Positions 1,400 through 31,208 of a stretch of 32,000 nt of DNA are shown here, piece after piece. The translations under genes and the position numbers were made by a program. Source of the stretch: an uncultured Gammaproteobacteria bacterium (GTDB lineage: Bacteria > Patescibacteriota > Microgenomatia > Daviesbacterales > UBA10151); NCBI GenBank assembly GCA_964360965.1, contig CAYHYM010000004.1, positions 30,001 through 62,000 of the forward strand, written 5' to 3'. Each line of letters starts with the position of its first letter. The first letter of the stretch is position 1. The notes beneath the pieces are model-generated. The model did no database searches. It saw nothing but the letters and a program-made list of their open reading frames with translations, and was not told the DNA's origin.

Positions 1400-2538
1400 G
1401 CGAGGGATAAATTGGGATCTGCCTGAAGTTTTAAAGGATTTGGGATGGGTTTTTGGAAAAATCCAGCTGCTGCAATCATGGCTCCGTTATCTGTACACAA
1501 GTCTGGTGGAGGAATATATAATTTAATATTTGAATTCAAACTGTCCACTGTAACCTGTAACCTGTCAACTAACTTTTTATTTGCAGCCACACCGCCGGCA
1601 ATCATGATATTTTTCACAGGATGAACTTTTAATGCCTGGATTACTTTTTCTACTAAAGATTCAACTATGGTATTTTCAATAGCAGCAGCCAGATCTTGCT
1701 TCACCTCCGAGGAGTCAAAGCCCACCTCGGAGGTGTGTACCAGGTTTGCTACTGCAGTTTTTAAGCCTGAATAAGAGAAATCAAAATCTTTTGATCCCTT
1801 CATAGGAATGGGAAGTTTAAATCTATTTGGATTACCTTTTTGAGCCAGTTTGGAAATTTCCGGTCCTCCTGGATAGGAAAGTCCTAATAATCTGGCACAT
1901 TTATCAAAGCACTCACCTGCCGCATCATCCCTGGTGCCACCTAAATAATCATACTTGCCATGACTGGTAAAAAGCACTAAATCCGTATGCCCACCTGAAA
2001 CCAGTAAGCCTAAACAAGGAAATACTGGTACTTCACCTCCGGGATGTTCTGTTTGAATCCAGTTGGCATAAAAGTGGCCAAGTAAATGGTTAACTGGTAT
2101 TAATGGTTTATTCCAAACTAAGGCTAGAGTTTTGGCTGTTTCTACTCCCACCAAAAGGGATCCAATCAGTCCTGGACCGTATGTGACAGCTATGGCATCA
2201 ATTTTCTTTATTCTGTCATCCCGACGAATGTCGGGATCCAATTCCGAACGTGACTTTGTTAATTGGATTCTCCTCGAGTCTGAGCGACCTCGGAGTCGAA
2301 GACCTGCATTCGCAGGAATGACATCGGGAAAGATTTGACTTAGTGCTTCCTCAATTACCGGAATAATGCTTTTGATCTGTTCCCTGGCAGCTTGTTCCGG
2401 AATAATTCCTCCATATTTGGCTTGTAAATTAGCTGATGATGCTACGACATTGGATAATATTTTTACTCCATCTTTATCCTTTATCAATATAGCAACTGCT
2501 GTCTCATCGCAACTAGTTTCAATACCGAGTATTATCAT
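1396..2538 (-). CDS. tsaD: tRNA N6-adenosine threonylcarbamoyltransferase TsaD (Kae1/Gcp family), carrying two in-frame GC-rich inserts
   Basis: MIILGIETSCDETAVA start, HLLGH metal-binding motif, VSGGHT and IAGGVAAN blocks are canonical TsaD. The segments VIPANAGLRLRGRSDSRRIQLTKSRSELDPDIRRDD and TSEVGFDSSEV are extra. Confidence 0.92.
   Translation of the reverse strand: MIILGIETSCDETAVAILIKDKDGVKILSNVVASSANLQAKYGGIIPEQAAREQIKSIIPVIEEALSQIFPDVIPANAGLRLRGRSDSRRIQLTKSRSELDPDIRRDDRIKKIDAIAVTYGPGLIGSLLVGVETAKTLALVWNKPLIPVNHLLGHFYANWIQTEHPGGEVPVFPCLGLLVSGGHTDLVLFTSHGKYDYLGGTRDDAAGECFDKCARLLGLSYPGGPEISKLAQKGNPNRFKLPIPMKGSKDFDFSYSGLKTAVANLVHTSEVGFDSSEVKQDLAAAIENTIVESLVEKVIQALKVHPVKNIMIAGGVAANKKLVDRLQVTVDSLNSNIKLYIPPPDLCTDNGAMIAAAGFFQKPIPNPLKLQADPNLSLA
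1702..1735. repeat. 34-nt GC-rich hairpin element (11-bp arms) inside tsaD, twin of 30849..30882
   Basis: CACCTCCGAGG-agtcaaagccca-CCTCGGAGGTG. Its reverse complement matches 30849-30882 at 33 of 34 positions. Confidence 0.85.
2212..2322. repeat. About 110-nt GC-rich multi-hairpin element inserted in frame in tsaD (boundaries approximate)
   Basis: Hairpins ATCCCGAC-gaat-GTCGGGAT (2218-2237), CGAC-ctcgga-GTCG (2285-2298) and CCTGC-attc-GCAGG (2303-2316). Clearly GC-rich compared with the flanking sequence. Encodes VIPANAGL...DPDIRRDD. Confidence 0.75.
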
Positions 2539-3323: not shown

Positions 3324-3721
3324 TTAATCTATTTTAACAGAGTGCTCTTTTAGCCATTTGGAGATTTGTTCAACTGTTAAATTGCCATTGTCTACTCTAA
3401 CTGCAAACTCTACTTCTTCTTTATGTTGATTTATTAATTTATACTCATTTTTTTAAGGAATAAACCAGCTGAAGTTAAAGCGGCGCGTTTGTTGCCATCT
3501 ACAAAGGGATGATTTTTTAAAAGTGACTGTAGTAGGGCTGCAGCTTTGTCAAAAATGGAAATATATAAATATTCGCCTCCAAATGTAGCTTGTGGTCTAG
3601 CTACCGCTGATTCTACCAAACCCATGTCCCTGGTTCCTAAAGAACCGCCAAATCTTTTTACCATTTGATCGTGAATAAATAGAACCTGTTCTATTGTGAG
3701 AAAAATAATTTTTGTTTTCAC
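3324..3721 (-). pseudogene. doc: Doc (Fic-fold) toxin interrupted by a 1-nt frameshift in an A7 run
   Basis: ORF 3434..3721 carries the Fic/Doc motif HPFVDGNKRAA and stops at ...LFLKKMSIN*. The -1 frame continues as NEYKLINQHKEEVEFAVRVDNGNLTVEQISKWLKEHSVKID* down to 3324, a typical Doc C-terminus. The switch point is the T7 run on the + strand at 3448-3454. Confidence 0.75.
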
Positions 3722-3954
3722 CTATGGGAGAGTTCTTGTAAGACGTCTTTGTGATCTTCAATAAACTGATCCACCATTTTGGCGAATCTTACATCTACAC
3801 CAGGTATCTTGATTTTCTTTTGTGGAATTAAGGTAAGACCCTGATTTGTTTCTTTCCACTCAACCTTTGACCCATCCCGTATAGAAAGCTGGTGGGCATA
3901 GGCTTTAGGTACAGTAACTGCTAAAGAGTTACCATTTTTAAATACTTTTCTCAT
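3718..3954 (-). CDS. AbrB/MazE/SpoVT-type antitoxin paired with Doc
   Basis: KNGNSLAVTVPKAYAHQLSIRDGSKVEW is the SpoVT-AbrB swapped-hairpin signature. Overlaps doc by 4 bp. Confidence 0.75.
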   Translation of the reverse strand: MRKVFKNGNSLAVTVPKAYAHQLSIRDGSKVEWKETNQGLTLIPQKKIKIPGVDVRFAKMVDQFIEDHKDVLQELSHR

Positions 3955-4021: not shown

Positions 4022-4897
4022 GTGATTACTAAATCAAAACAGGAATATATTAAAAATGCTATTTATCTTTCCTATACTTCTTTAAATGATTTTTTGAAGT
4101 GTCCCGGGAGCTATTATTTAAAAAACATCTACAGAGATCCCAAAACCGGCTTTAGGATGCAGATTGCCTCACCTTATCTTTCTTTAGGTTCAACAGTCCA
4201 TGATGCTATAAAGTGGCATATAGAAATGGCAGGCCCGCTTCGACTCGCGTCGAGCGAGGCGAGACAGGTAACATATGAACAATTGGAGGGAAAATTTAGA
4301 AATCTATGGCTAAAATATACCGGTAAAAGAGGGGGTTTCTCCACCAAAGAAGATGAAGCAAGTTTTGGTAAGCGCGGCCTGTTAATGTTGGAGAATTTTT
4401 TTAGAAATGCCAAAAACTTGGAAGATAAACATCACAGTATAGAATTTCCTAAATACCCATTATTGGATAATGTAATTTTAATGGGGAATTTTGACTTTAT
4501 TGGGGAAAAAGAGGATCAGACCTTACATGTTGTGGATTTTAAAACCGGAGCAAATGATGAAAAAGATCCAATTCAGCTTTATATTTATGCCATTTTGGCA
4601 GAGGCTAATTTGGAAAAATCAGTTTCTTCAGCTTCATTTTGGTATTTGGACAGGGAAGATAAACCGCGTGATATAGTTTTAGATCCGCTGGAACCAAAAC
4701 TGGAATGGTTAAAAGAAAAAGCCACAGAGTTAAAAAAGGCAATTGGGGAGGGAATGTGGGTTTGTCCTTCGACTCGCTCCGCTCGCTCAGGATTATGTAG
4801 AGATTGTAGAGACTATCATGCCATTTTGGATGGAAAAGGTGAATTTCAATTTACTGATTATAGATACAAGAAAGATGTTTATTACCTTCCCAAATAG
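4022..4897 (+). CDS. PD-(D/E)XK nuclease, RecB/Cas4-like, with a Cys cluster
   Basis: GNFDFIG...HVVDFKTG (D...DxK) and QLYIYAIL (QxxxY) motifs. One N-terminal Cys (FLKCPG) plus C-terminal C-x10-C-x2-C. GTG start. Two GC-rich in-frame inserts. Confidence 0.7.
   Translation: MITKSKQEYIKNAIYLSYTSLNDFLKCPGSYYLKNIYRDPKTGFRMQIASPYLSLGSTVHDAIKWHIEMAGPLRLASSEARQVTYEQLEGKFRNLWLKYTGKRGGFSTKEDEASFGKRGLLMLENFFRNAKNLEDKHHSIEFPKYPLLDNVILMGNFDFIGEKEDQTLHVVDFKTGANDEKDPIQLYIYAILAEANLEKSVSSASFWYLDREDKPRDIVLDPLEPKLEWLKEKATELKKAIGEGMWVCPSTRSARSGLCRDCRDYHAILDGKGEFQFTDYRYKKDVYYLPK
4229..4267. repeat. GC-rich repeat fragment in frame in the nuclease gene
   Basis: ggcccgCTTCGACtcgcGTCGAGcgaggcgagacagg encodes GPLRLASSEARQ. 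Contains the CTTCGAC core shared with the other elements. Confidence 0.6.
4766..4792. repeat. GC-rich repeat fragment (CCTTCGAC...GCTCAGG type) in frame in the nuclease gene
   Basis: CCTTCGACtcgctccgctcGCTCAGGa encodes PSTRSARSG, between the first and second C-terminal cysteines. Confidence 0.65.
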
Positions 4898-4918
4898 TGG
4901 CTAGACTTCATGAGTAGT

Positions 4919-5350
4919 TTAACCTGTTTTTTTAGAATCTGGGATTATGACTGAAATAACAGGTTTTTGATCTAACAATTCTACCACAAAAAGCCCATGC
5001 AAAAGAGTGGCTGTTTTAAGCACTTGCTCAAGAGGGACTCCTGTTTCTTTGGCAATTTGTTCAGCAGGTGCGCTCCAATGATGATCTTTTAAAGAGCGGG
5101 TAAAAGCTCCCAAGGGCTGGTTTTTGTAAGCTGCCATTCTGGTAAGAAAAGCCAGAGGTTCTGCCAGTTCACTAAATGGCTTGGGGGCACAAGGTGTATC
5201 AGGTATGGGTACTTTAGTTAGATCAACAGGAACTGTTAATTGCTCAACAAGCATCATTTCTACTGTAGATCTATTTTCCAAGCTTGTCAAAAAAGCTGTT
5301 TGGTTAAGGTGAACTAGCCTCAAAAAACGTGAATTAATACCGCAAAACAC
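4919..5350 (-). CDS. Hypothetical protein; start uncertain (GTG at 5350, or the ATG pair about 31 codons in)
   Basis: ORF downstream of the hydrolase gene on the same strand. The C-terminal half looks helix-turn-helix-like (weak). Confidence 0.4.
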   Translation of the reverse strand: MFCGINSRFLRLVHLNQTAFLTSLENRSTVEMMLVEQLTVPVDLTKVPIPDTPCAPKPFSELAEPLAFLTRMAAYKNQPLGAFTRSLKDHHWSAPAEQIAKETGVPLEQVLKTATLLHGLFVVELLDQKPVISVIIPDSKKTG

Positions 5351-5387
5351 CTTAAATTCACGCTAAATTGACAAAAGTAAGTGAATT

Positions 5388-6221
5388 TCAGCTAAGTTGA
5401 TGGACCATGTCTTCTACCATTTCTCTAACTCTTGCTTGCTGAGGATAAGTTGAATCTTTATCTGAGACTGCTTTATCGCTTGTTAAAGCTACAAAGCTGT
5501 GTTCAATATATCTACGGTCTATAGATTGCAGATAACCTGCTTGATGGCAATAACTAAATCCATCTTGGGTAATATTACCATCTTTATGCCTAACAGTAAC
5601 CTCTTGACCACTTGCTGTAGCAGTTTTTCTAGTAGGGATCCATCTTAAAAACTTTTGGCCCAGATAATTATCTCTAACTAAAAAGCCTTTCCTAAACTCA
5701 TATAAAAATTGGCCTACATTTTGAGCTGTTGTTTCATTTAGTGTGCCTGATTCAAGATTTAAGATAGTAGTATCATGAAGATGCCAATTGGATAAAACAT
5801 CCTGTATTCTATTTCTACCTGCTACATCCGCTACCTTGGCAATTGCTACGTTATCAGAAAATTGAATAGAGTATCTTAGGAGATCTTCTAAAGTCTTTGT
5901 TGGCAGCATGTCCCTTCTAACAGCTTTGGACATAGCCCAGAGAGGAAGAAATTCTACTTTAAGTCTTCCAGTACCATGCATATTTTCCTGATACTCGTAA
6001 GGGGTAATATGATATCTTTGTTGTAAATCAAGCACCTCATCTTCTACTATTTTTAGAGCTACAGCCACTATAAAAAGTTTACCCAAAGAAGCAGCAGGTT
6101 GTTTCTCATGAGAATTGTATTCAGTAACTACTTGGTCAGTTTTTAAATTCTGTTGGAAGAAAGCAGTATGTAACTGACCATAAGTTTGTATACCACTTGC
6201 TTCTTTAATTGAGCCTGTCAT
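5388..6221 (-). CDS. Serine hydrolase with a class A beta-lactamase-like fold and no signal peptide
   Basis: SxxK (ASLGK), SDN (QFSDNVAIAKV) and a KTG-like HKDG motif occur in the expected order. Confidence 0.55.
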   Translation of the reverse strand: MTGSIKEASGIQTYGQLHTAFFQQNLKTDQVVTEYNSHEKQPAASLGKLFIVAVALKIVEDEVLDLQQRYHITPYEYQENMHGTGRLKVEFLPLWAMSKAVRRDMLPTKTLEDLLRYSIQFSDNVAIAKVADVAGRNRIQDVLSNWHLHDTTILNLESGTLNETTAQNVGQFLYEFRKGFLVRDNYLGQKFLRWIPTRKTATASGQEVTVRHKDGNITQDGFSYCHQAGYLQSIDRRYIEHSFVALTSDKAVSDKDSTYPQQARVREMVEDMVHQLS

Positions 6222-6286
6222 GGTTGGATTGTATCATAAAAGTTTAACTTCTGCTAAATTGTTATATTTGTGGAAGCCTACCTGTA

Positions 6287-6727
6287 TTATTCTCCGGCTA
6301 ATTTAAAGCCCGGCTTAGGGTACCAATCATCAAAAGAAAATATCAAATTTGTTTCAAACTTATTGGCAGTTGCAGCCACAATTGCGTCAAAAATAGTATT
6401 TTGCTTAGATTGAGACCTTGTTTCAAAAATAATCGCTGCCTTAGTTTGAATTTCTAAGTTTACGTACTCCACAGTAAAAGCTCCTGCCAGATATTGTTTA
6501 TTTATTAATTTTGCTTTATCAGGTAGGTTTTTAGCACGAGATAAGGCTGTAATTGTTTCCAGAATAGCAGTATTAGGATAAATTACTTGAAATCTTTTTA
6601 AGTTGAGCCACTGACTGATTCTCTTTGCTTTTTGGTGATTAGCATCTTGCTTATCTGCTAAAGCTATTAAGGAATCCGCATCTCCTATAATAATATTGTT
6701 CACTTTTGTCTTTTCTCTCCACCCCAA
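6287..6727 (-). CDS. PIN-domain toxin (VapC-like)
   Basis: N-terminal IIIGDADSLIAL and C-terminal IFDAIVAATANKFETNLIFSFDDWY are typical PIN acidic motifs. Overlaps the upstream RHH gene. Confidence 0.7.
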   Translation of the reverse strand: MGWREKTKVNNIIIGDADSLIALADKQDANHQKAKRISQWLNLKRFQVIYPNTAILETITALSRAKNLPDKAKLINKQYLAGAFTVEYVNLEIQTKAAIIFETRSQSKQNTIFDAIVAATANKFETNLIFSFDDWYPKPGFKLAGE

Positions 6728-6963
6728 GCGTAGTAGTCGTGATTTATAGATACATCCGTAGGAGAACCTTGTTGGCTGGGCATTTGTTCTGCCATCTTAG
6801 CCAGATCAAGTAAAGCCTGGGCATTGGATTTAGGGTGATTAATCTCCAAGCCCTTACTCAGGGCCTCTCTTATAATTTCAGCTTCAGCCTTATTCTTATC
6901 TTGAGCTATTAAGCTAATTCTTCTTCTGGTATCATCCGGGATGTGAACACTGATTCTTTGCAT
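6700..6963 (-). CDS. Ribbon-helix-helix (CopG-type) antitoxin
   Basis: MQRISVHIPDDTRRRISLIAQDKNKAEAEIIREALSKGL is an RHH signature. The start is placed at the ATG at 6963 because the -10 box lies inside the longer ORF-track call. Confidence 0.7.
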   Translation of the reverse strand: MQRISVHIPDDTRRRISLIAQDKNKAEAEIIREALSKGLEINHPKSNAQALLDLAKMAEQMPSQQGSPTDVSINHDYYAWGGEKRQK

Positions 6964-6972
6964 ATGTATTAC

Positions 6973-7001
6973 ATCATACATCATACAAACAGGTTTGTCA
7001 A
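6973..7001 (-). promoter_or_regulatory. Promoter TTGACA-17-TATGAT for the RHH/PIN operon
   Basis: Minus strand: TTGACA (7001-6996), 17-nt spacer, TATGAT (6978-6973). The ATG lies 9 nt downstream. Confidence 0.55.
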
Positions 7002-7201
7002 GTGCCCAACTTAACTTCAGCTAAAGTGTTGTGTTTATGAAATCCATTAGAGGGGATCGACTCAAATAGCTTAATCGACGATATCCGTATTGGATTAAAA
7101 GGCATGGCCATAAGTTTTTCCATTTCCACTTCTAATTTTTGATCTACTTTTAAATGGTTGTTGAGCTTGGAAATATTGAAATCTTCACTTTTGATAAAGA
7201 C
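6998..7201 (-). pseudogene. Relic 3' end of a thpR paralogue (67 in-frame codons, no start)
   Basis: Translates to ...FNISKLNNHLKVDQKLEVEMEKLMAMPFNPIRISSIKLFESIPSNGFHKHNTLAEVKLGT*, against the ThpR C-terminus HITIAKLNNHLKVDQKLEVEMEKLMAMPFNPIKISSIKLFESVPQEGFHKHNTLAEVKLV*. Positions 7092-7170 are identical to 12687-12765. Confidence 0.85.
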
Positions 7202-7223
7202 TTAAAAAAGTTAAGGTAAAAAT

Positions 7224-7307
7224 TACCAGGCTATTTTAGAGGGGAAAGGTGAGTTTCAGTTTACAGACCACCGCTACAAAAAAGATATTTATTTCTTGAA
7301 ACGTTAA
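7224..7307 (+). pseudogene. Relic 3' end of a PD-(D/E)XK nuclease paralogue
   Basis: YQAILEGKGEFQFTDHRYKKDIYFLKR*, against YHAILDGKGEFQFTDYRYKKDVYYLPK* at 4814-4897. Confidence 0.8.
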
Positions 7308-8845
7308 TAAATAGGCTCGAGGTCTTTTTCTACAACTTTTTCTATTAAAGTTTGTCCAGGGAAGATATAAATAAGTCTGATTTTGCCTGAACCGACCTTG
7401 TTCAGTTCGTCAATAATAGTTGTAACTTTACTTGACTTAATATCAGTAAAAGGTTTGGCGACGGAATGGTATCTGCTGATAAAACCTTCTAGTTCGGAAG
7501 CTGCCAGAATCACCACTACATTTTTATCCAGAAGTGTGGTCATTTCGCCTTTAAGCTTACCTTGTTCTCGTAATAGGTTTTCAATTACTTGATAAAATTG
7601 GTTAAAATCTTGGGTGTTTGATTTACAGTTAATAATAAACTGTTGGACCTTTTCTTGTGTCTCAGAATTTACTGCGATAGACCCCTCTAGGATGTGACCT
7701 TCAAAGGCTGAAGTACTACTGTTGTAGACAGAAGGTAACCCAAGGAGAATAGTATGTGCTACCTCAATTTGGTGTTCCGCAAGCTCTGCTAACACGCTTC
7801 TTACTGCTTGTTTTGGGTCAATATAGTCAATTCCAGGTTCTTGTTCTAGTAATTTGCCAACGCCTCCGTGCATAGCGGTGGAGCTAAAAGTGATTATTGG
7901 GGGTATTCTTCTCTCCCTAGGTAGTGCTTTCGCGCGAGCCATTAATTCAGGCATATGAGCTTTTAAACTTTGGCCATATAAATTAGTGTCAATTGAGCCT
8001 GATAGTTTTGGATCAGAGATCGGATAAATCTCAGGAAACGAGCGATCGCCAAAATAGTTCTTCCCCAAGGCTGTAATTAGAGAGTTCATCAGGGCTTCGG
8101 TGAAATGGGCAGTATCACGACCGCTATCTCCACCAACAACAATAATTGGTCTTCTAGCAATCACTCTTGTTTCTTCTGGTTTACTAATATCCGGAGTAAT
8201 GGTTTGTATTGGTAGTCTTTGAATACCCTTCAGGTAGCGTCTAATATCAAATCCAACGTAAAATCTAGGGTCTCCTGAAGAAGAAAATACTGTATCCTCA
8301 TAAGGATAATCTGCTCCAGTAATTAGGTCACGATCAAAAAAATGCCTTATGGGAATATCAGTTTGGGTAAATGGGTTAACGGTGCCATACTCAAGACCTA
8401 GCTTGGTCACATCAGCACGCTTTAGATCAGACTCACTAACATCTAAGTGCTGGGCCAATTTGGTAAAGTCTAGCTCTCGATCAGCTCTGGTATGAGTTAT
8501 AACTAGGGGATAACCAGGAGCTGTTAGGGCATTAGATCTCATAATTCGCCATAGTTCTACTCCTTGCTCTCCCTCGAAAATCGCAGCCGCAGCATTTTCT
8601 CTTACAGATCTGGGACGGCCTTGATTTTTACCAAAAAAATAATGAACTCCGTATTCAAAACGCAAAAGTGGCGGGACTGGAGTTTCTGTATATATCTCAT
8701 CTCTAATCTCTGCCGGGACATCAAAAATGGTCAGGCAAAGTGAATCAAAATGGCTGGCGATTTGAGCCAGTCTTTCCACCACAGGATCGCTTTCTTCAAG
8801 GCCAAGTTGCTTTGGGTTAAATCCAACCTGTAATAATTGTTCCAT
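7304..8845 (-). CDS. Fusion protein: N-terminal YbaK/ProX-like aminoacyl-tRNA deacylase fold plus C-terminal Asp/Glu-racemase-like fold lacking both catalytic Cys
   Basis: N-terminal half: PLVITHTRADRELDFTKLAQHLDV...LGLEYGTVNPF...FSSSGDPRFYVGF follows the YbaK block pattern. C-terminal half: IIVVGGDSGRDTA, IITFSSTAMHGG (in place of CNTAH) and VVILAASELEG (in place of GCTE) follow the Asp/Glu racemase blocks. Confidence 0.55.
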   Translation of the reverse strand: MEQLLQVGFNPKQLGLEESDPVVERLAQIASHFDSLCLTIFDVPAEIRDEIYTETPVPPLLRFEYGVHYFFGKNQGRPRSVRENAAAAIFEGEQGVELWRIMRSNALTAPGYPLVITHTRADRELDFTKLAQHLDVSESDLKRADVTKLGLEYGTVNPFTQTDIPIRHFFDRDLITGADYPYEDTVFSSSGDPRFYVGFDIRRYLKGIQRLPIQTITPDISKPEETRVIARRPIIVVGGDSGRDTAHFTEALMNSLITALGKNYFGDRSFPEIYPISDPKLSGSIDTNLYGQSLKAHMPELMARAKALPRERRIPPIITFSSTAMHGGVGKLLEQEPGIDYIDPKQAVRSVLAELAEHQIEVAHTILLGLPSVYNSSTSAFEGHILEGSIAVNSETQEKVQQFIINCKSNTQDFNQFYQVIENLLREQGKLKGEMTTLLDKNVVVILAASELEGFISRYHSVAKPFTDIKSSKVTTIIDELNKVGSGKIRLIYIFPGQTLIEKVVEKDLEPIY

Positions 8846-8874
8846 ATATCTATTATCTATGTGATAGAGCAGGT

Positions 8875-8903
8875 ATTATACACTATAAGGCTTATTATGT
8901 CAA
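8875..8903 (-). promoter_or_regulatory. Perfect consensus promoter TTGACA-17-TATAAT for the 513-aa gene
   Basis: Minus strand: TTGACA (8903-8898), 17-nt spacer, TATAAT (8880-8875). Leader of about 29 nt to the ATG at 8845. Confidence 0.6.
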
Positions 8904-8925
8904 AATGATTAAACTAAGGATTTTT

Positions 8926-8957
8926 GTGTTTTTAAAACACTTGTTGACATATTGTCA
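8926..8957. promoter_or_regulatory. Two adjacent palindromes (candidate operators) overlapping the glutaminase -35 box
   Basis: GTGTTTT-t-AAAACAC (8926-8940) and TGACA-tat-TGTCA (8945-8957). Confidence 0.4.
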
Positions 8958-8974
8958 TACAGATGTGTTATACT
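8944..8974 (+). promoter_or_regulatory. Promoter for the glutaminase operon, apparently leaderless
   Basis: TTGACA (8944-8949), 19-nt spacer containing TGt, then TATACT (8969-8974). The ATG at 8981 is 6 nt downstream. No SD. Confidence 0.5.
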
Positions 8975-8980
8975 TAAGTT

Positions 8981-10711
8981 ATGGCATTAAAAAGAACTAC
9001 CCTAAGGATAGATGAAGACTTAAAAAAAGATACTCAACAGCGAGCCTTAGAGGAGAATACCACTCAACAAGAAATTCTCAATAGAGCTTTAAAGAAATAT
9101 TTAAGAACTGAGGTTCAGAAAGAGCTTGCTAGGGAAACAGTGGCCGAGCCACAGGAAGTAACTACAAAAAAGGCTAGTTCGAGTAAACCAGCAGATGTAA
9201 TTGATTTGATATTTAGCTCACTGGATATCGAAGCCAGGGGTTTTATTAAAAAGGGAGATTTGATAGATGCCCTTAATTTTAGAGGAATTCTAGAGGATGA
9301 CATTAGGATTAAAAATGTCATGGAGGCTTTGAGTAAAACTAATAAAGACGATGATATCCCCCCCCAAACCTTCCGCAGGATTGTTGGGCCGTACATTACA
9401 TTAATTGAAAAAGCCCTGACTGGTAGTCTGGTTATCCCCGATTTTAAGAATTTCTGTAGTTTTATTACTAATCTTTATAATCGCACAATTCAAAACAAAG
9501 ATGGCGAGGTTTCAGATTACATACCTGAGCTAAAAGGAGTTGACCCAAATAACTATGCTATTTCCATTTGTACTATAGACGGACAGAGATTTAATTTGGG
9601 AGATTACAATACTCCCTATCTAGCCCAATCTACTGCCAAACCCATAAATTATTGTCTGGCCTTAGAAGAGCACGGCGAAGAAGTAGTTCATAAAAAGATT
9701 GGCAGAGAACCTTTAGGCAAAGGTTTAAATCAGTTGACTCTAAACAGTCAAGGATTGCCGCATAATCCTTTAAATGGTACAGGAGCAATTATGTCGGCCT
9801 CCTTGATTGGCCAAGAACTTTCCCTGGAAGACCGTTTTGAACAGGCTTTAAAGAAATGGAAGTCGCTTTCCGGAGGAATTAATCCTGGATTTTCAAAATC
9901 AGCTTACGATTCAGCTAAACATGTTGCGGATAAAGATCTGGCGCTAGCTTATTTTATGAGATTGAATCAGTTGTTTTCCAAAGGATCAAATTTAGAAGAA
10001 TATTTGGACTTTCTGTTTAAATGCTTATCTATTGAAACTACCACTGAAGCTCAAGCAATTATTGCTGCCACTTTGGCAAACGCCGGAGTTTGTCCGACCA
10101 ATGGGGAAGCCGTGTTAAAAATGGAGACTACAAAGAATTGTTTATCTTTGATGTATTCCTGCGGTATGGAAGATTACTCGTCTGAGTTTGCTTTTGCAAT
10201 AGGACTTCCTGCTAAAAGCGGTATTTCAGGATCGATTATGATAGTTGTGCCTAATGTGATGGGAATTGCGATTTATTCTCCTAGGGTTGATAGTAATGGC
10301 AATAGTGTTAAAGGATTAGATTTATGTAATAAATTAATCCAGAGATTTAATTTTCATAATTACGATAGCTTAACTAAAAAACTGGATAAAATTGATCCCA
10401 GGCTTTTGAAAAATGAAAATAAAATGAGGGGCGTGATGGCTGTTTGTACTGCTGCTTCTCAGGGAGATCTATATGAGATCCAAAGGTTAGAGGCCTCGGG
10501 GGTTGCTTTGGATGAAGGTGATTATGATGCCAGAACCGGCATACATCTGGCAGCCTCGGAAGGTCACGAAGAGGTAGTTCGCTATTTTATTGAAAGAAGA
10601 GTGGATATTAACCCTAAAGACCGTTGGGGTGGGACACCTTTAGCTGATGCCATGAGAGGTAACCACACTGCGGTAATTGAACTGTTGGAGAAAAATGGAG
10701 CCAGGCTATGA
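8981..10711 (+). CDS. glsA: Glutaminase with animal-GLS-like architecture (EF-hand-like helical domain + glutaminase + C-terminal ankyrin repeats), fused to an N-terminal RHH/VapB-like DNA-binding domain
   Basis: N-terminus KRTTLRIDEDLKKDTQQRALEENTTQQEILNRALKKYL (RHH). Core blocks VIPDFKNF, DYIPEL, CTIDGQR, QSTAKPINY (SxxK), HNPLNGTGAI, ATLANAGVCP, LSLMYSCGMEDYS, GLPAKSGISGS, VVPNVMG, NSVKG, FHNYD. C-terminus DYDARTGIHLAASEGHEEVVRYFI...DRWGGTPLADA (ANK). Confidence 0.85.
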   Translation: MALKRTTLRIDEDLKKDTQQRALEENTTQQEILNRALKKYLRTEVQKELARETVAEPQEVTTKKASSSKPADVIDLIFSSLDIEARGFIKKGDLIDALNFRGILEDDIRIKNVMEALSKTNKDDDIPPQTFRRIVGPYITLIEKALTGSLVIPDFKNFCSFITNLYNRTIQNKDGEVSDYIPELKGVDPNNYAISICTIDGQRFNLGDYNTPYLAQSTAKPINYCLALEEHGEEVVHKKIGREPLGKGLNQLTLNSQGLPHNPLNGTGAIMSASLIGQELSLEDRFEQALKKWKSLSGGINPGFSKSAYDSAKHVADKDLALAYFMRLNQLFSKGSNLEEYLDFLFKCLSIETTTEAQAIIAATLANAGVCPTNGEAVLKMETTKNCLSLMYSCGMEDYSSEFAFAIGLPAKSGISGSIMIVVPNVMGIAIYSPRVDSNGNSVKGLDLCNKLIQRFNFHNYDSLTKKLDKIDPRLLKNENKMRGVMAVCTAASQGDLYEIQRLEASGVALDEGDYDARTGIHLAASEGHEEVVRYFIERRVDINPKDRWGGTPLADAMRGNHTAVIELLEKNGARL

Positions 10712-11013
10712 AAAGTGATATTAAGACAACCGGAGTAATGGCGCTTGACTGGGCAGCGGCTCAGGGAGATTTGCACGAGATTCAAAGGTTAGTCGCATCC
10801 GGCGCAGATTTGAACGAAGGTGATTATGATGGGAGAACCGCAATACATCTGGCAGCCTCGGAAGGACAGGAAGAAATTGTCAGGTATTTAATTGCGAAAG
10901 GTGTAAATATTAATCCTAGGGATCGTTGGGGTGGGACACCTTTAGCTGATGCCATGAGAGGTAACCACACCAAAGTTATAGAGCTTTTGAAAAAACATAA
11001 TGCACAGAAATAA
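10708..11013 (+). CDS. Stand-alone ankyrin-repeat protein, a tandem duplicate of the glutaminase ANK tail
   Basis: DYDGRTAIHLAASEGQEEIVRYLI...DRWGGTPLADAMRGNHTKVIELL. ATGA overlap with the glutaminase gene. Identical DNA blocks at an offset of 302 bp. Confidence 0.8.
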   Translation: MKSDIKTTGVMALDWAAAQGDLHEIQRLVASGADLNEGDYDGRTAIHLAASEGQEEIVRYLIAKGVNINPRDRWGGTPLADAMRGNHTKVIELLKKHNAQK

Positions 11014-11024
11014 TCTAATTTCCT

Positions 11025-12125
11025 ATGAATGATAAACAAATTTCTCCTCCCAATAAAATAAAAGTTTATGTATTAAACACAGGTGGAACTCTGGGAATGG
11101 TGGGTAAACCGCTTCGTCCCGCTAAATCAGCTGCAGAGCTTTTAGAGGGAATTAATACTCCGCCTGAAGTGGAACTTATCATAGATGATTTTAAGTTTAG
11201 GCAGGATTCTACTAATATTTTGCATGCTGAAAGGCTAATGATGGCTAGGCAAATAGCCGAAAATTATAAAACCCATGATGCTTTTGTCATTATGCACGGG
11301 ACTGATTCTATGGCAGAAACAGCTGCAGCTTTTTGTATGTTCTTTAAATTATCTTTACAAAAGCCTTTAATTTTAGTTGGTGCTCAGATGTCTAAAGATG
11401 AGCCTGGTTCAGATGTACAACTGCAGTTATCAAATACTTTTAGAGTTGCCAGCGCCTTTCATAGATATAATATTGTGGGTGTTTATAATGTTTGTATCGG
11501 TGATATTTGGGATGGGTCAAGGCTTAGGAAAAGAGCAGAGTCAAATTTCATGGCTTTTTACACTCCAGGTCGTCATCCGGTGGCCAGAATTTGGCCTCAT
11601 ATTCACTTTGATGAAGGGTTAAGATATAAAGATCCTGTTTTGGCAGTTCAGGATTTAAAGATTGATGGTGTGCTAGAGCGTAAAGTAGCTACTTTTAAAG
11701 TATCAGCAGATACACCTCCATGGGTAGTAATGGATCAAGTTTTAAAAAATCGCCTCAAAGGGGTCATTTTAGAGTGTAAAGGTGCAGGAAATATTCCAAA
11801 TCGTGAATGGGAAGATTATGAAAACGGGACAACTTATTCATGGATTGATGTAATTGCGGCAGCAACTAAAGCTGGAATCCATGTGGGGATTATTTCACCT
11901 TTTGAAGATGGCAGAGTTATCCTAGGTCGTTATGAGCTGGGAGCAGAAGCACTTGAGGCAGGGGCAATTAGCTTAGAAAGTCTGACTCCAGATATGGCAG
12001 ATATTAAGTTTAGACAGGCTATTGCTATGTTTCCTACAGATAGAGAAAAAATTCAAGAATTTATTTCAACTAATATTATTGGAGAATTACTTACCGGAGC
12101 AGAAGATTCTGAGGAATTCATTTAG
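11025..12125 (+). CDS. ansA: Type I (cytosolic, AnsA/ASPG-like) L-asparaginase
   Basis: LNTGGTLGM (TGGTIG motif), IMHGTDSMAETA (HGTDTM motif), ILVGAQ, and the GAGN block in the C-terminal domain. Confidence 0.8.
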   Translation: MNDKQISPPNKIKVYVLNTGGTLGMVGKPLRPAKSAAELLEGINTPPEVELIIDDFKFRQDSTNILHAERLMMARQIAENYKTHDAFVIMHGTDSMAETAAAFCMFFKLSLQKPLILVGAQMSKDEPGSDVQLQLSNTFRVASAFHRYNIVGVYNVCIGDIWDGSRLRKRAESNFMAFYTPGRHPVARIWPHIHFDEGLRYKDPVLAVQDLKIDGVLERKVATFKVSADTPPWVVMDQVLKNRLKGVILECKGAGNIPNREWEDYENGTTYSWIDVIAAATKAGIHVGIISPFEDGRVILGRYELGAEALEAGAISLESLTPDMADIKFRQAIAMFPTDREKIQEFISTNIIGELLTGAEDSEEFI

Positions 12126-12135
12126 AGTAAGTTTT

Positions 12136-12180
12136 TTACCCAAGTTTAACTTCAGCCAGAATGTTATGTTTATGGAAGCC
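12136..12180 (-). pseudogene. Second relic of the thpR 3' end (last 14 codons plus stop)
   Basis: GFHKHNILAEVKLG*, against ThpR GFHKHNTLAEVKLV*. Confidence 0.7.
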
Positions 12181-12193
12181 ATTTTTGTAGAAA

Positions 12194-12313
12194 TCAAAGT
12201 AATTCTTTAAGTTCATCTATGGAAATTTCCACTGACTTTAAAATACTCATTAGAGTTTTTCTTTTGAGAGCTTTAATGACCTCCTTTGGCTTAACAACTG
12301 GAATTTTGGGCAT
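12194..12313 (-). pseudogene. hicA: HicA toxin remnant with an in-frame internal deletion (39 aa)
   Basis: MPKIPVVKPKEVIKALKRK|TLMSILKSVEISIDELKELL* keeps the HicA N- and C-termini but lacks the central GSH...H core. Its start abuts the hicB stop. Confidence 0.65.
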
Positions 12314-12577
12314 TTAAGAAAGAGTTTGCTGGATGGGTATATCAATTGTTGTCATAAAGCTGGGACCTTTTTCTTCAGGAACTATTTCATTATGTTTTTT
12401 TAAACTGGCAATATATACGCTGATAGCATCTTTAACCATCTCCACAGCTTCTTCCAAACTGTTACCTTCTGTGACACATCCTGGCAGAGCAGGTACAATC
12501 ACCACATACCCACCTTCTTCAGCTGGTTCAAAAATAGCAGTATATTTTAAGATTTTTTGAGAGATTTTCTTAGCCAT
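12314..12577 (-). CDS. hicB: HicB-family antitoxin
   Basis: YTAIFEPAEEGGYVVIVPALPGCVTEGNSLEEAVEMVKDAI is the HicB/UPF0150 signature. Confidence 0.8.
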   Translation of the reverse strand: MAKKISQKILKYTAIFEPAEEGGYVVIVPALPGCVTEGNSLEEAVEMVKDAISVYIASLKKHNEIVPEEKGPSFMTTIDIPIQQTLS

Positions 12578-12595
12578 GGAGTTATTATAGCATTT

Positions 12596-13162
12596 TCAAA
12601 CTAACTTTACTTCAGCTAAAGTATTATGTTTGTGGAAACCTTCTTGGGGAACTGATTCAAACAGTTTAATGGAGGAAATTTTAATGGGATTAAAAGGCAT
12701 GGCCATAAGTTTTTCCATTTCCACTTCTAATTTTTGATCTACTTTTAAATGGTTGTTGAGCTTGGCAATGGTGATATGAGGAATGAAACGACGTTCATCT
12801 GCTGTGAGCCTTAAAGTGGCCAAGCTATCTTTGATGCGCTCACGAATAAGTAAAATTTTATCTATATCCCCTTTGACTCCAATCCAAAGAACTTGAGGAT
12901 GGTGGAGGTTTGGAAATCCATCAATATAGGCAGGGGTAACTTCAAATGCAGGAATATTCGCTACAGCATTTCTGATAATTTCAACTAATTTATCCTTTAA
13001 TCCATCCGGTTGTTCTCCTAAAAAAGCTAAAGTCAGGTGAATTTTGTCTAAATCAGTAATTCTTACTTGAGTAATTAATGTATGCAATTTAGCTTGTATA
13101 GCTTGAAACTGCAATCTATTCTCTTTCGGAATTTCAAGTGCTATGAAAAACCTTATACCCAT
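12596..13162 (-). CDS. thpR: RNA 2',3'-cyclic phosphodiesterase (2H family, LigT/ThpR)
   Basis: Two HxTx motifs (HLTLAFLG and HITIAKL) at the expected spacing. Confidence 0.85.
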   Translation of the reverse strand: MGIRFFIALEIPKENRLQFQAIQAKLHTLITQVRITDLDKIHLTLAFLGEQPDGLKDKLVEIIRNAVANIPAFEVTPAYIDGFPNLHHPQVLWIGVKGDIDKILLIRERIKDSLATLRLTADERRFIPHITIAKLNNHLKVDQKLEVEMEKLMAMPFNPIKISSIKLFESVPQEGFHKHNTLAEVKLV

Positions 13163-30306: not shown

Positions 30307-31208
30307 GCCTTAATTATGCCAATTTTGCTGACGTTTTGCCACATCTGATCCACAATTTGATCAATTGGTTGATTTTTTATCCGGGCAATTTCTTTAACCA
30401 CTTCTAAAACATAGGCAGGTTCGTTTCTCTGTCCCCGTTTTGATTGTGGCGGTAAAAAAGGAGAATCAGTTTCGATGGTAATTTTTTCCAAAGGTAGGAT
30501 CCTGGCGGCTTCTTGTAGATATTCATTTTGGGGATAGGTGATATTGCCGGCAAAGGAAACCAGGAAATTAGTTTGCAGTATGCGGTTGGTAGTTGGTAGT
30601 AAGCCACTATAACAGTGGTAAATACCAAAGTAGTCTTTTGTCATCTTCAAGACTTCATCCCAGGCCGAAGGAGACGAAGTCTCCGCAGGTGGTGAGCCAC
30701 TCGGCACTGAGCTCACGGCCGAAGTGCCTGTCGAACCGCTACTTTTTGATCTGTCATCCCGGCAGTGAACAATTAAAGGAAGGTTAAGTTTTTTTGCTAA
30801 ATCAATTTGAGCTTGGAAAAGCTGCCTTTGTAGGTTTTTAACAATAAACACCTCCGAGGTGGGCTTTGACTCCCCGGAGGTGGAGAAAGCATAATCCAGG
30901 CCGCACTCTCCAACAGCTACTACTTTATCTACATTATCTAAATATATTTTTTCTAAACTTTTTATATCTTTTTGGATAGATATGTCTAGGTTATCTTTAT
31001 ACTTAACTGCCTCATGAGGATGAATGCCAATCGAAGAATAAAATTTTAATTTGTTAGAATTTAACTCTGCTGCGATTTTGGAAGTTTCAACATCTACACC
31101 AATATTAATGATAATGCCTACATCAGCATCTAAGGAATGTCTAATCACTTCGTCAAAGTCTTGTTTAAAACTATCCCAATATAAATGTGCATGAGTATCA
31201 ATTAACAT
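30303..31208 (-). CDS. tatD: TatD-family metal-dependent hydrolase/DNase with two in-frame GC-rich inserts
   Basis: MLIDTHAHL, GECGLDY, IVHCRD, IYHCYSG and ETDSPFL blocks. The extra segments are SSGSTGTSAVSSVPSGSPPAETSSPS and TSGESKPTSEV. Confidence 0.88.
   Translation of the reverse strand: MLIDTHAHLYWDSFKQDFDEVIRHSLDADVGIIINIGVDVETSKIAAELNSNKLKFYSSIGIHPHEAVKYKDNLDISIQKDIKSLEKIYLDNVDKVVAVGECGLDYAFSTSGESKPTSEVFIVKNLQRQLFQAQIDLAKKLNLPLIVHCRDDRSKSSGSTGTSAVSSVPSGSPPAETSSPSAWDEVLKMTKDYFGIYHCYSGLLPTTNRILQTNFLVSFAGNITYPQNEYLQEAARILPLEKITIETDSPFLPPQSKRGQRNEPAYVLEVVKEIARIKNQPIDQIVDQMWQNVSKIGIIKA
30663..30740. repeat. 78-nt GC-rich composite element in frame in tatD
   Basis: GGAGAC-gaa-GTCTCC (30670-30684), GTGAGC...GCTCAC (30692-30716), direct GGCCGAAG at 30663 and 30717, and CTGTCGAACCGCT shared with 17264-17273. 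Confidence 0.75.
30849..30883. repeat. 34-nt GC-rich hairpin element inside tatD, twin of 1702..1735
   Basis: CACCTCCGAGGTGGGCTTTGACTCCCCGGAGGTG matches the reverse complement of the tsaD copy at 33 of 34 positions. Confidence 0.85.

Follow-up and report, generated by a model that had tools for sequence, protein, structure and literature searches.

Reiterated gene ends suggest serial 3′-end displacement between a nuclease gene and thpR in Candidatus Daviesbacteria

The 32-kb stretch of DNA analysed here (the window) lies on a 64.8-kb contig of an uncultured Candidatus Daviesbacteria (Microgenomates, candidate phyla radiation, CPR) from the 0.1-µm fraction of Hainich groundwater well H51. Within it, the gene of a Cas4-like PD-(D/E)XK nuclease and thpR, which encodes RNA 2′,3′-cyclic phosphodiesterase, are conserved core genes that converge on and anchor a hot-spot, in which copies of their own 3′ ends lie among toxin–antitoxin (TA) cassettes and metabolic genes. 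We consider it probable that this interval is a chromosomal landing pad that grows by repeated 3′-end displacement in Candidatus Daviesbacteria. DNA from a related lineage, comprising the 3′ part of a gene and what lies downstream, would recombine homologously inside the resident conserved gene, and its far end would be joined without long homology, by either homology-facilitated illegitimate recombination or a single crossover that integrates a circularised fragment. With a foreign 3′ end, the resident gene would remain intact, and the old end would be pushed downstream as a relic together with its old neighbours. At least four such events (E1 to E4) appear to be recorded in the window. Coordinates refer to the window unless a comparison contig or locus (L-number) is named; the relatives comprised 10 loci from GTDB species representatives, 11 Daviesbacteria-like loci from Joint Genome Institute (JGI) metagenomes, and eight obtained via exact-protein look-ups.

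The 3′ end of thpR occurs four times, once in the intact gene and three times as relics downstream of it on the minus strand (R1, R2, and R3), and the nuclease 3′ end occurs twice, in the intact gene and as a relic downstream of it on the plus strand (nuc′; Table 1). An initial annotation, made from the sequence alone, had reported these repeats in the right orientation and at or within a few bases of the positions given here, and they are well above chance; its two nuclease ends and all thpR ends it listed exist, although its count of three thpR ends missed R3. All relics are in frame, possess their own stop codon, and keep the orientation of the parent gene. Across related sequence totalling 806 kb, a regular expression for the 13-aa thpR end motif matched only thpR ends and these relics, and a degenerate DNA pattern of the terminal block of thpR gave no match in viral contigs.

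Differences between the relics and the intact genes are concentrated at third codon positions. This applies to the six short thpR relics (R2, R3, and four from relatives, see below) when pooled (35 of 56 differences, p = 7.5e-6), to the 3′ part of R1 (7007–7091; 4/2/18 differences by codon position, third positions 18/24, p = 3.6e-5), and to nuc′ (6/3/17, third positions 17/26, p = 8e-4). The 3′ part of R1 is a diverged allele of functional type, with nine identical, 14 synonymous, and four non-synonymous codons relative to thpR across codons 161–187. R2 differs from the intact thpR by seven synonymous codons and one non-synonymous codon, and R3 matches it with a tblastn E-value of 2e-3 (blastn, 83% over 36 nt, E = 3e-5). 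For nuc′, compared with the nuclease gene at 4808–4897, identity is 70% over 30 aa, with 12 synonymous and seven non-synonymous codons. Since a third-position bias together with intact frames and stop codons is not what functionless copies left in place would show, the relics are the ends of functional orthologues from other lineages and not decayed duplications.

R1, the long relic, contains a sharp change of identity. From 7007 to 7182 it aligns with thpR 12602–12777 at 84.7% over 176 nt (89% over 57 aa); within this alignment, 7092–7170 equals 12687–12765 exactly over 79 nt, and the remaining approximately 90 nt contain 24 differences (approximately 73% identity). The chance of an exact run of 79 nt is 5e-10 at 72% identity and 2e-4 at 85%. 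As such a run is improbable at background divergence, we regard thpR codon ~160 as a recombination breakpoint. The two 79-nt exact direct repeats lie 5,595 nt apart and bound a block of metabolic genes (cargo B) together with hicB and hicA′.

The left end of this segment is formed by the central junction at approximately 7170/7172, where thpR codon ~134 is joined to a PIN toxin gene 16 codons before its stop. The junction is either illegitimate or the point at which a fragment was closed into a circle; it would be the sole illegitimate join of the stacking event, and the PIN remnant, which makes up the 35-nt filler between R1 and nuc′, would be the left end of the imported fragment. The remnant is best matched by the C-termini of AbrB–PIN toxins encoded after the nuclease gene in L009 (EIFTFDQKLAKLN, then stop; tblastn E = 0.012; 82% over 33 nt) and L016 (LFTFDKKLSNLK, then stop), and its C-terminal motif occurs at only three places in 887 kb, i.e., in the window, L009, and L016. 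In L016, the PIN stop overlaps a nuclease relic starting at K262, a junction identical to that of the window. In the window, nuc′ overlaps the stop of the 513-aa gene of cargo B; the L009 nuclease end is its closer match (84% over 77 nt), as against 76% for the end of the window's own nuclease gene. Because of the L009/L016 arrangement, the shared junction, and the closeness to L009, nuc′ is best regarded as a second-hand relic imported with cargo B, and not as a product of the stacking itself. The donor would have been arranged as nuc–AbrB–PIN–nuc′–(513 aa, glutaminase, Ank, asparaginase)–R2–hicA–hicB–thpR.

R3 is located between the PIN and beta-lactamase-like genes, with the PIN stop 2 nt away, and its region is collinear with L018 (L018 1748–1890 corresponds to window 6278–6136, 80% over 143 nt). 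Starting at codon G175, the alignment covers the stop and a 12-nt spacer and reaches into the beta-lactamase-like gene, homologues of which directly follow the intact thpR in L018 and L019. This collinearity argues for R3 being the ancestral thpR end still joined to its ancestral neighbour, and the beta-lactamase-like gene would accordingly not be inserted cargo. The initial annotation had treated this gene, a hypothetical gene, and the RHH–PIN pair as one cargo block, of which only RHH–PIN was inserted. A promoter-like site for the beta-lactamase-like gene is contained in R3 (TTAGCA-18-TACAAT with TG, 6257–6228), and L018 has the same site.

Table 1. Features of the nuclease–thpR interval and its left flank in the window.
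Feature	Coordinates	Strand	Evidence or sequence
Doc (Fic/DOC) toxin and MazE/AbrB antitoxin genes	3434–3954	−	Pfam Fic 9e-21, MazE_antitoxin 3.5e-12
Intact Cas4-like PD-(D/E)XK nuclease gene (left anchor)	4022–4897	+	PDDEXK_1 6e-20; Cas4-like matches
Hypothetical 143-aa gene	4919–5350	−	No family match
Beta-lactamase-fold (class A-like) gene	5388–6221	−	Beta-lactamase2 1.6e-18
R3, oldest displaced thpR 3′ end, codons ~173–188 and stop	6234–6284	−	QVGFHKYNNLAEVKLL, then stop
RHH antitoxin gene (6700–6963, or to 6984 with alternative start) and PIN toxin gene (6287–6727)	6287–6984	−	Pfam PIN 4e-8, RHH_1 3.8e-4
R1, long thpR relic, codons ~134–188 and stop	6998–7182	−	tblastn E 4e-30
PIN toxin gene remnant, last 15 codons and stop	7172–7219	+	NIEIFTFDKDLKKLR, then stop
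nuc′, nuclease 3′-end relic, codons ~262–291 and stop	7218–7307	+	KNYQAILEGKGEFQFTDHRYKKDIYFLKR, then stop; E 1e-9
513-aa YbaK-like/Asp-Glu-racemase-fold fusion gene (cargo B)	7304–8845	−	tRNA_edit 3e-3 (weak)
Glutaminase gene with EF-hand_14 and ankyrin domains (cargo B)	8981–10711	+	Pfam
Separate ankyrin gene (cargo B)	10708–11013	+	Pfam
Type I asparaginase/GatD-like gene (cargo B)	11025–12125	+	Asparaginase 4e-33; asnASE_I 4e-42
R2, displaced thpR 3′ end, codons ~173–188 and stop	12136–12186	−	GFHKHNILAEVKLG, then stop; tblastn E 1e-3
hicB antitoxin gene (12314–12577) and hicA′ (12194–12313)	12194–12577	−	HicB_lk_antitox 5e-11
Intact thpR (right anchor)	12596–13162	−	TIGR02258 3.5e-35; LigT_PEase

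The initial suggestion that the nuclease–thpR gap accepts cargo was borne out by the relatives, in which the arrangement varies. The gap is a variable cargo site in Candidatus Daviesbacteria: across twenty-odd related loci, it ranges from an 8-nt gene overlap in L008 and approximately 10 nt in L025, through 0.4–0.8 kb (L015, L107, L009, and L101) and 1.5–3.7 kb (L019, L105, L010, L017, L026, and L023), to 7.7 kb in L011, and its content differs between loci. L012 is devoid of thpR, and L013 and L014 (10829–10945) keep only its first ~37 codons, abutting the end of the nuclease gene; thpR is thus dispensable in some lineages.

Six TA cassettes in five genomes directly follow thpR and are themselves followed by a thpR relic of ~45 nt. 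Two are found in the window (hicB–hicA′ then R2, and RHH–PIN then R3), and the others in L010 (an inverted RHH–PIN), L011 (RHH–RelE-like), L101–103 (HicBA plus a 70-aa gene), and L104–106 (MazE–PIN). These cassettes are mutually unrelated or distant, their own promoter-like sites overlap the proximal thpR tail and stop, and the toxin stop lies 0–15 nt from the relic in most of them. The flanking repeats span 39–51 nt and are present as a single copy in L008, L018, L019, L020, L021, L025, and others; members of a pair show 3–14 differences in 39 nt, mostly synonymous, and share runs of just 7–20 nt. The prediction that a thpR with a multi-residue tail after ...AEVKL is followed by a cassette and a relic proved true in two of the three cases tested (L101 and L104). 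An asparaginase-like nature of the L020 neighbour was rejected, as tblastn gave no match to the asparaginase of the window.

L011 and L016 show the pattern of cassette and relic at the 3′ end of the nuclease gene as well. The nuclease relics of these loci (~11594–11620 and ~11668–11693, respectively) share a 26-nt insertion, CRAAGYTTGCGRGCTAATCGCTCTTA, and are preceded by different TA cassettes, indicating that slots persist as cassettes turn over. Further duplications concern other genes and other gene parts. In L008, the 5′ end of the nuclease gene and its upstream region are duplicated around an insert encoding 487 aa (4733–4850 vs. 6377–6494); in L010, the tsaD–nuclease intergenic region recurs within the nuclease–thpR interval (9058–9120 and 9942–9998 vs. 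11234–11353); and L015 carries a relic of the 3′ end of a hyp230 homologue (7903–8016 vs. 8272–8385). In L028, an aminoacyl-tRNA synthetase gene is followed, 27 nt past its stop, by a second copy of its last ~22 codons, which is a different allele and is separated from the gene by no cargo (7237–7302/7341–7406). That relics occur at unrelated genes, include 5′ ends, and in one instance accompany no cargo speaks for recombination of a general kind and not for a single dedicated site.

What characterises 3′-end displacement is found in the window: 3′ fragments downstream in the same orientation (likewise in L010, L011, L016, L101, and L104), differing functional alleles with a breakpoint, and an illegitimate junction. 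In E1, the RHH–PIN cassette would have displaced the ancestral thpR end (R3), which would still drive its beta-lactamase-like neighbour. E2 would have occurred in the donor lineage, an AbrB–PIN cassette displacing the nuclease end (nuc′). In E3, the hicBA cassette would have displaced the thpR end R2; its place in the series, also relative to the stacking, is uncertain. E4, presumably the youngest, would have added a 5.6-kb donor fragment to the resident haplotype, running from inside the PIN gene via nuc′, the YbaK/racemase, glutaminase, ankyrin, and asparaginase genes, R2, and hicA′–hicB to thpR codon ~160, and leaving R1 and the 79-nt exact direct repeats. Ordinary homologous recombination in the flanking sequences would subsequently disseminate units of cassette and relic among species and account for their turnover. 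We infer the recombination pathway, uptake by transformation (from general knowledge of the CPR), and the order of E2 to E4; competence genes were not among the window genes, with no search aimed at them. The initial annotation had offered two explanations, and each holds in part. Successive insertions are retained, with the thpR end regenerated and the older one displaced downstream each time, whereas the integrase-type element invoked for them lacks support. Two interval haplotypes were indeed stacked, but unequal homologous recombination alone cannot make the thpR/PIN junction.

Several points weigh against serial displacement. Neither a donor genome nor a pre-insertion strain was found among the sequences compared, the nearest thpR being 82% identical, and the contig with this closest thpR (L108) carries a different hicB cassette and is just ~83–86% identical at the DNA level. 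The sole, weak indication that R2 was native to the donor is a 51-nt match to L021 at 80% identity. The 79-nt duplication of E4 is atypical of single-strand homology-facilitated illegitimate recombination; it fits a single crossover of a circular fragment in an identical tract, or later gene conversion. Finally, the starts of the short thpR relics are clustered, which random illegitimate joins do not predict: all six fall within codons 170–176 (an 18-nt span), four of them at ~codon 173, with a chance of ~3e-5 by a rough estimate that assumes joins to be uniform over the last 200 nt.

This common boundary may have several origins. Young long relics such as R1 may be trimmed to a selected part, e.g., a promoter; three of the six short relics are compatible with a promoter that serves co-oriented genes downstream. 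A minimal conserved block may instead be kept as a homology arm that moves cassette and relic by recombination, or the boundary may reflect shared descent of the slot or a hidden site-specific activity. An onset of nucleotide conservation at the boundary was weakly supported, given a dip at codons 171–174 but equal conservation upstream (codons 164–170), and was rejected. A terminator scan of the 45-nt block found nothing. It is possible, if rather unlikely, that the TA cassettes are recombinase-free "homing" units whose far side carries ~45 nt copied from the conserved 3′ block of a housekeeping gene. The gene body would then provide the long homology arm, and the relic would be a second, short one or an attachment site, so that a cassette could insert into thpR or the nuclease gene of any related species, whatever lies downstream, and selection at the cassette level would keep the relic trimmed to the conserved block. 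If true, homing would explain the starts at codons 170–176, the junction of PIN stop and K262 shared by the window and L016, and relics that outlive their cassettes (L011 vs. L016).

A site-specific integration, in which the last ~45 nt of the thpR or nuclease block act as an attachment (att) site for small circular TA cassettes with their own copy of that site and the recombinase is encoded elsewhere in the genome, resembles integron cassettes or cis-mobilisable elements accumulating at gene 3′ ends, and we regard it as doubtful. It would account for the start of all six short relics within codons 170–176 beside six different TA cassettes, for the new tail and stop that the cassettes supply to thpR (a tail by which, as described above, cassettes were predicted correctly in two of three tests), for their compactness, and for the position of unit B between 79-nt exact direct repeats. 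However, no integrase, resolvase, or transposase was detected by Pfam among all window open reading frames (ORFs) of ≥110 aa and the smaller ORFs within the interval, as the initial annotation had stated, and no recombinase was present in the intervals examined. The two copies flanking a cassette appear to lack a conserved identical core, and third positions vary freely; boundaries scatter over 18 nt instead of falling on one phosphodiester bond; and the cassette of L010 is inverted. Folding of 26 copies of the 45-nt block revealed no common hairpin or attC-like structure, and IntI was likewise not found. Many site specificities would be needed, since relics are found at various unrelated genes and at 5′ ends and, in one case, lack cargo; the cassettes also have promoter-like sites of their own, unlike integron cassettes. 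Nor do the cassette ends show the inverted or conserved termini of a transposon or insertion sequence. The initial reading as an integrative element finds no support, given that no recombinase gene was found, that the short repeat pairs show no evident identical core, and that one cassette is inverted.

We consider it very unlikely that the arrangement is an artefact in which two strains, or a chromosome and a 5.6-kb circle, were joined via the 79-nt repeat; the initial annotation had raised the concern of a strain-chimeric assembly. The repeat exceeds common assembler k-mers, and contigs of Logan and some of ENA break exactly there (L005 starts at 7092, L007 ends at 7170, and L006 ends at 7146), which is expected with short k-mers. 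Coverage is just ~4x, and the link across 10999–11007 in the ankyrin gene depends on the window contig and a 9-nt contig overlap. On either side, however, two replicate assemblies contain the arrangement: RHH–R1–PIN′–nuc′–513 aa is spanned by L003 (11.3 kb, replicate 1) and L004 (replicate 2), and asparaginase–R2–hicB–full thpR by L001 and L002 (separate assemblies), with 99.8–100% identity to the window and equal coverage (4.0–4.6x). The thpR/PIN junction offers no identity of k-mer length that could mislead an assembler and is crossed by the Logan contig L005 (k = 31). A contig with swapped pairing was not found by exact-protein look-ups with thpR, hicB, the 513-aa protein, and the beta-lactamase-like protein, and a circle would hold the same illegitimate junction and relics. 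Look-ups with the RHH and 291-aa nuclease ORFs gave no match, as public gene calls use other start codons; the central junction was recovered instead through the 513-aa and beta-lactamase-like proteins. As independent assemblies cover every junction, a chimera is unlikely and the concern is largely answered. An in situ tandem duplication of a segment from nuclease 3′ end over cargo to thpR 3′ end, followed by divergence and cargo replacement without foreign DNA, would yield the observed topology (nuc–X–thpR′/nuc′–Y–thpR) and a uniform GC content but is highly improbable, as functionless copies would decay evenly instead of showing third-position bias, saturated synonymous change, and intact frames and stops, the PIN fragment at the junction has no counterpart beside the resident nuclease gene, nuc′ resembles the nuclease of L009 more than the resident one, and the two cargos share no homology.

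Serial 3′-end displacement resembles several known phenomena. C-terminal displacement has reportedly been described for polymorphic toxins (Jackson et al. 2009, cited in PMC5361080). Rhs, CdiA-CT/CdiI orphans, and the effector–immunity arrays of the Vibrio cholerae type VI secretion system are C-terminal displacement arrays, for which homology-facilitated illegitimate recombination was proposed as the explanation (Kirchberger et al. 2017, PMC5361080), providing a precedent. As here, a conserved 5′ body acts as the anchor, a new 3′ end with linked genes arrives by horizontal transfer, and old ends are shifted downstream in the same orientation by successive, integrase-free events. In contrast to these arrays, our locus involves housekeeping genes with conserved C-termini and no evident selection for a new protein end, its cargo consists of TA cassettes and metabolic genes instead of cognate immunity genes, and the host belongs to the CPR. 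Homology-facilitated illegitimate recombination is said to have been observed in natural transformation (de Vries & Wackernagel 2002; Prudhomme et al. 2002; Meier & Wackernagel 2003; listed in PMC5361080 and PMC3240628), combining one homologous anchor with one illegitimate join beside a conserved gene. The counterparts in the window would be the crossover boundary at thpR codon ~160 and the join of thpR codon ~134 to PIN codon −16. The classical process deletes recipient DNA between anchor and join, whereas E4 would have duplicated 79 nt, and clustered boundaries of short relics are no known feature of it.

A further parallel is the insertion of restriction–modification (RM) units with long target duplication (Nobusato et al. 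2000; Furuta et al. 2010, PMC2853133). RM units that lack mobility genes lie between direct repeats of >30 bp that are single in the empty genome, in one H. influenzae example between 46-bp repeats overlapping gene 3′ ends, and occur mostly in naturally competent species (PMC2853133). Our locus shares with them addiction-type units and >30-bp flanking repeats that are single-copy in genomes lacking the unit; in contrast to their near-identical repeats, those described here are differing alleles, except for the 79-nt block of R1, and the cargo is TA. Genes for tRNAs or proteins accrete integrative and cis-mobilisable elements at their 3′ ends, the attP of the site-specific integrase carrying the gene end. 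These elements likewise regenerate the target end, reiterate ends as direct repeats, and stack in tandem, but neither an integrase nor a conserved identical core was found here, relics also involve 5′ ends and unrelated genes, and one junction lies inside two genes. Integration hot-spots between core genes reportedly exist without identifiable mobile elements (Oliveira, Touchon & Rocha 2017). Like our locus, they have a highly variable accessory interval lying between conserved core genes, to which homologous recombination in the flanking regions presumably supplies DNA; here, in contrast, physical relics show additive and replacement events and their order.

The genes around the interval have housekeeping roles (tsaD and genes for VanW-like, solute-binding, GroES/EL, MraY-like, and TatD proteins). 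GC content is uniform and host-like across the locus, cargo included (0.33–0.46), and no compositional anomaly of the cargo was found by GC. Nuclease orthologues adjoin tsaD in 10 Daviesbacteria metagenome-assembled genomes (54–72% aa identity), and thpR has 854 homologues. Upstream of the nuclease gene, in the variable tsaD–nuclease gap, the Doc/MazE cassette is shared with L013 (83/78% aa identity) and L008, and the other relatives are without it. All initial gene identifications hold by Pfam or NCBIfam, with which gene calls were checked, including the YbaK/racemase assignment of the 513-aa protein (weak tRNA_edit match; racemase fold).

By their domains, the cassettes fit type II TA families, namely RHH + PIN, HicB + HicA′, and Doc + MazE in the window and HicBA, MazE/AbrB–PIN, and RHH–RelE-like in relatives. 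The RHH–PIN cassette lies between R1 and R3, and its promoter-like site (TTGACA-17-TATGAT, 7001–6973) overlaps the stop codon of R1. The hicB–hicA′ cassette directly follows the intact thpR, with R2 distal to it. The hicA remnant noted initially is more precisely an in-frame internal deletion that leaves 18 N-terminal and 21 C-terminal residues (39 aa vs. 77 in L101); with the catalytic core of the toxin lost and hicB intact, this cassette is decaying. An extended −10 element, TGCTATAAT, is found 6 nt before the hicB ATG. A −10 box (TATAAT/TACAAT with TG) ending 6 nt before the ATG was observed for hicB (12578–12600), the beta-lactamase-like gene (6222–6257), and hicB of L101 (10556–10577), which suggests leaderless transcripts with promoters inside the preceding coding sequence.

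Cargo B encodes a coherent enzyme set (glutaminase, type I asparaginase, and YbaK-like/racemase-fold protein), none of which is predicted to be a mobility protein. The ankyrin gene is a tandem duplicate of the glutaminase C-terminus (10407–10696/10709–10998, 76% nt and 70% aa identity), and the asparaginase gene is convergent on R2. The closest homologues reach 84% and 78%, and the nearest named homologue of the glutaminase (78%) belongs to Candidatus Curtissbacteria. The combination EF-hand_14 + Glutaminase + Ank is known from animal GLS and is widespread in CPR, DPANN, Planctomycetota, and Myxococcota; an exotic transfer of a "eukaryote-type" glutaminase was rejected, as the architecture is common in CPR, DPANN, and other bacteria. 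A reading of the cargo as a defence system was likewise abandoned, since PADLOC gave just generic ankyrin and Cas4-like matches.

The C-terminal half of the 513-aa protein, modelled by AlphaFold with a pLDDT of 65, matches Asp/Glu racemases with TM-scores of 0.65–0.73 (best match 3ojc, TM-score 0.73, E = 9e-6). Given this fold and no PDB sequence match, the protein was rejected as a hidden recombinase. Its family is rare, with six homologues besides itself in 5.8 billion proteins. Homologues at L098 2759–4351, L099 2767–4344, and L100 1287–2864 are situated in a conserved cluster with two to three asparaginase-family genes, genes for a ~550-aa CbiA/ParA-like and a ~725-aa unknown protein, and an amidase gene; this cluster adjoins a large serine recombinase gene, or an integrase fragment and a TIR protein gene. 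It may represent a mobile amide-hydrolase or tRNA-linked module.

Apart from the interval, a 34-nt GC-rich perfect palindrome (CACCTCCGAGG-N12-CCTCGGAGGTG) was observed at 1702–1735 (minus strand) in tsaD and at 30849–30882 (plus strand) in tatD, and also in tsaD of another Daviesbacteria from the same well (L010 8263–8296). It is inserted in frame in two unrelated window genes, the chance expectation being none, and looks like a miniature palindromic insertion tolerated by coding sequence.

Few mobile elements can be recognised in the tiny genomes of CPR bacteria, whose acquisition of accessory genes is poorly documented. The locus would provide a readable stratigraphy of at least four integrase-free acquisitions, with donor-allele signatures, a homologous breakpoint, and an illegitimate junction, and would show that 3′-end displacement is not limited to diversifying toxin loci but also affects conserved housekeeping genes and brings in TA or metabolic cargo. 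For annotation, a short in-frame copy of the last codons of a gene downstream of it would mark imported DNA, and an odd C-terminal tail would predict a cassette. The common relic boundary is a lead towards a hidden site-specific activity or short-arm recombination.

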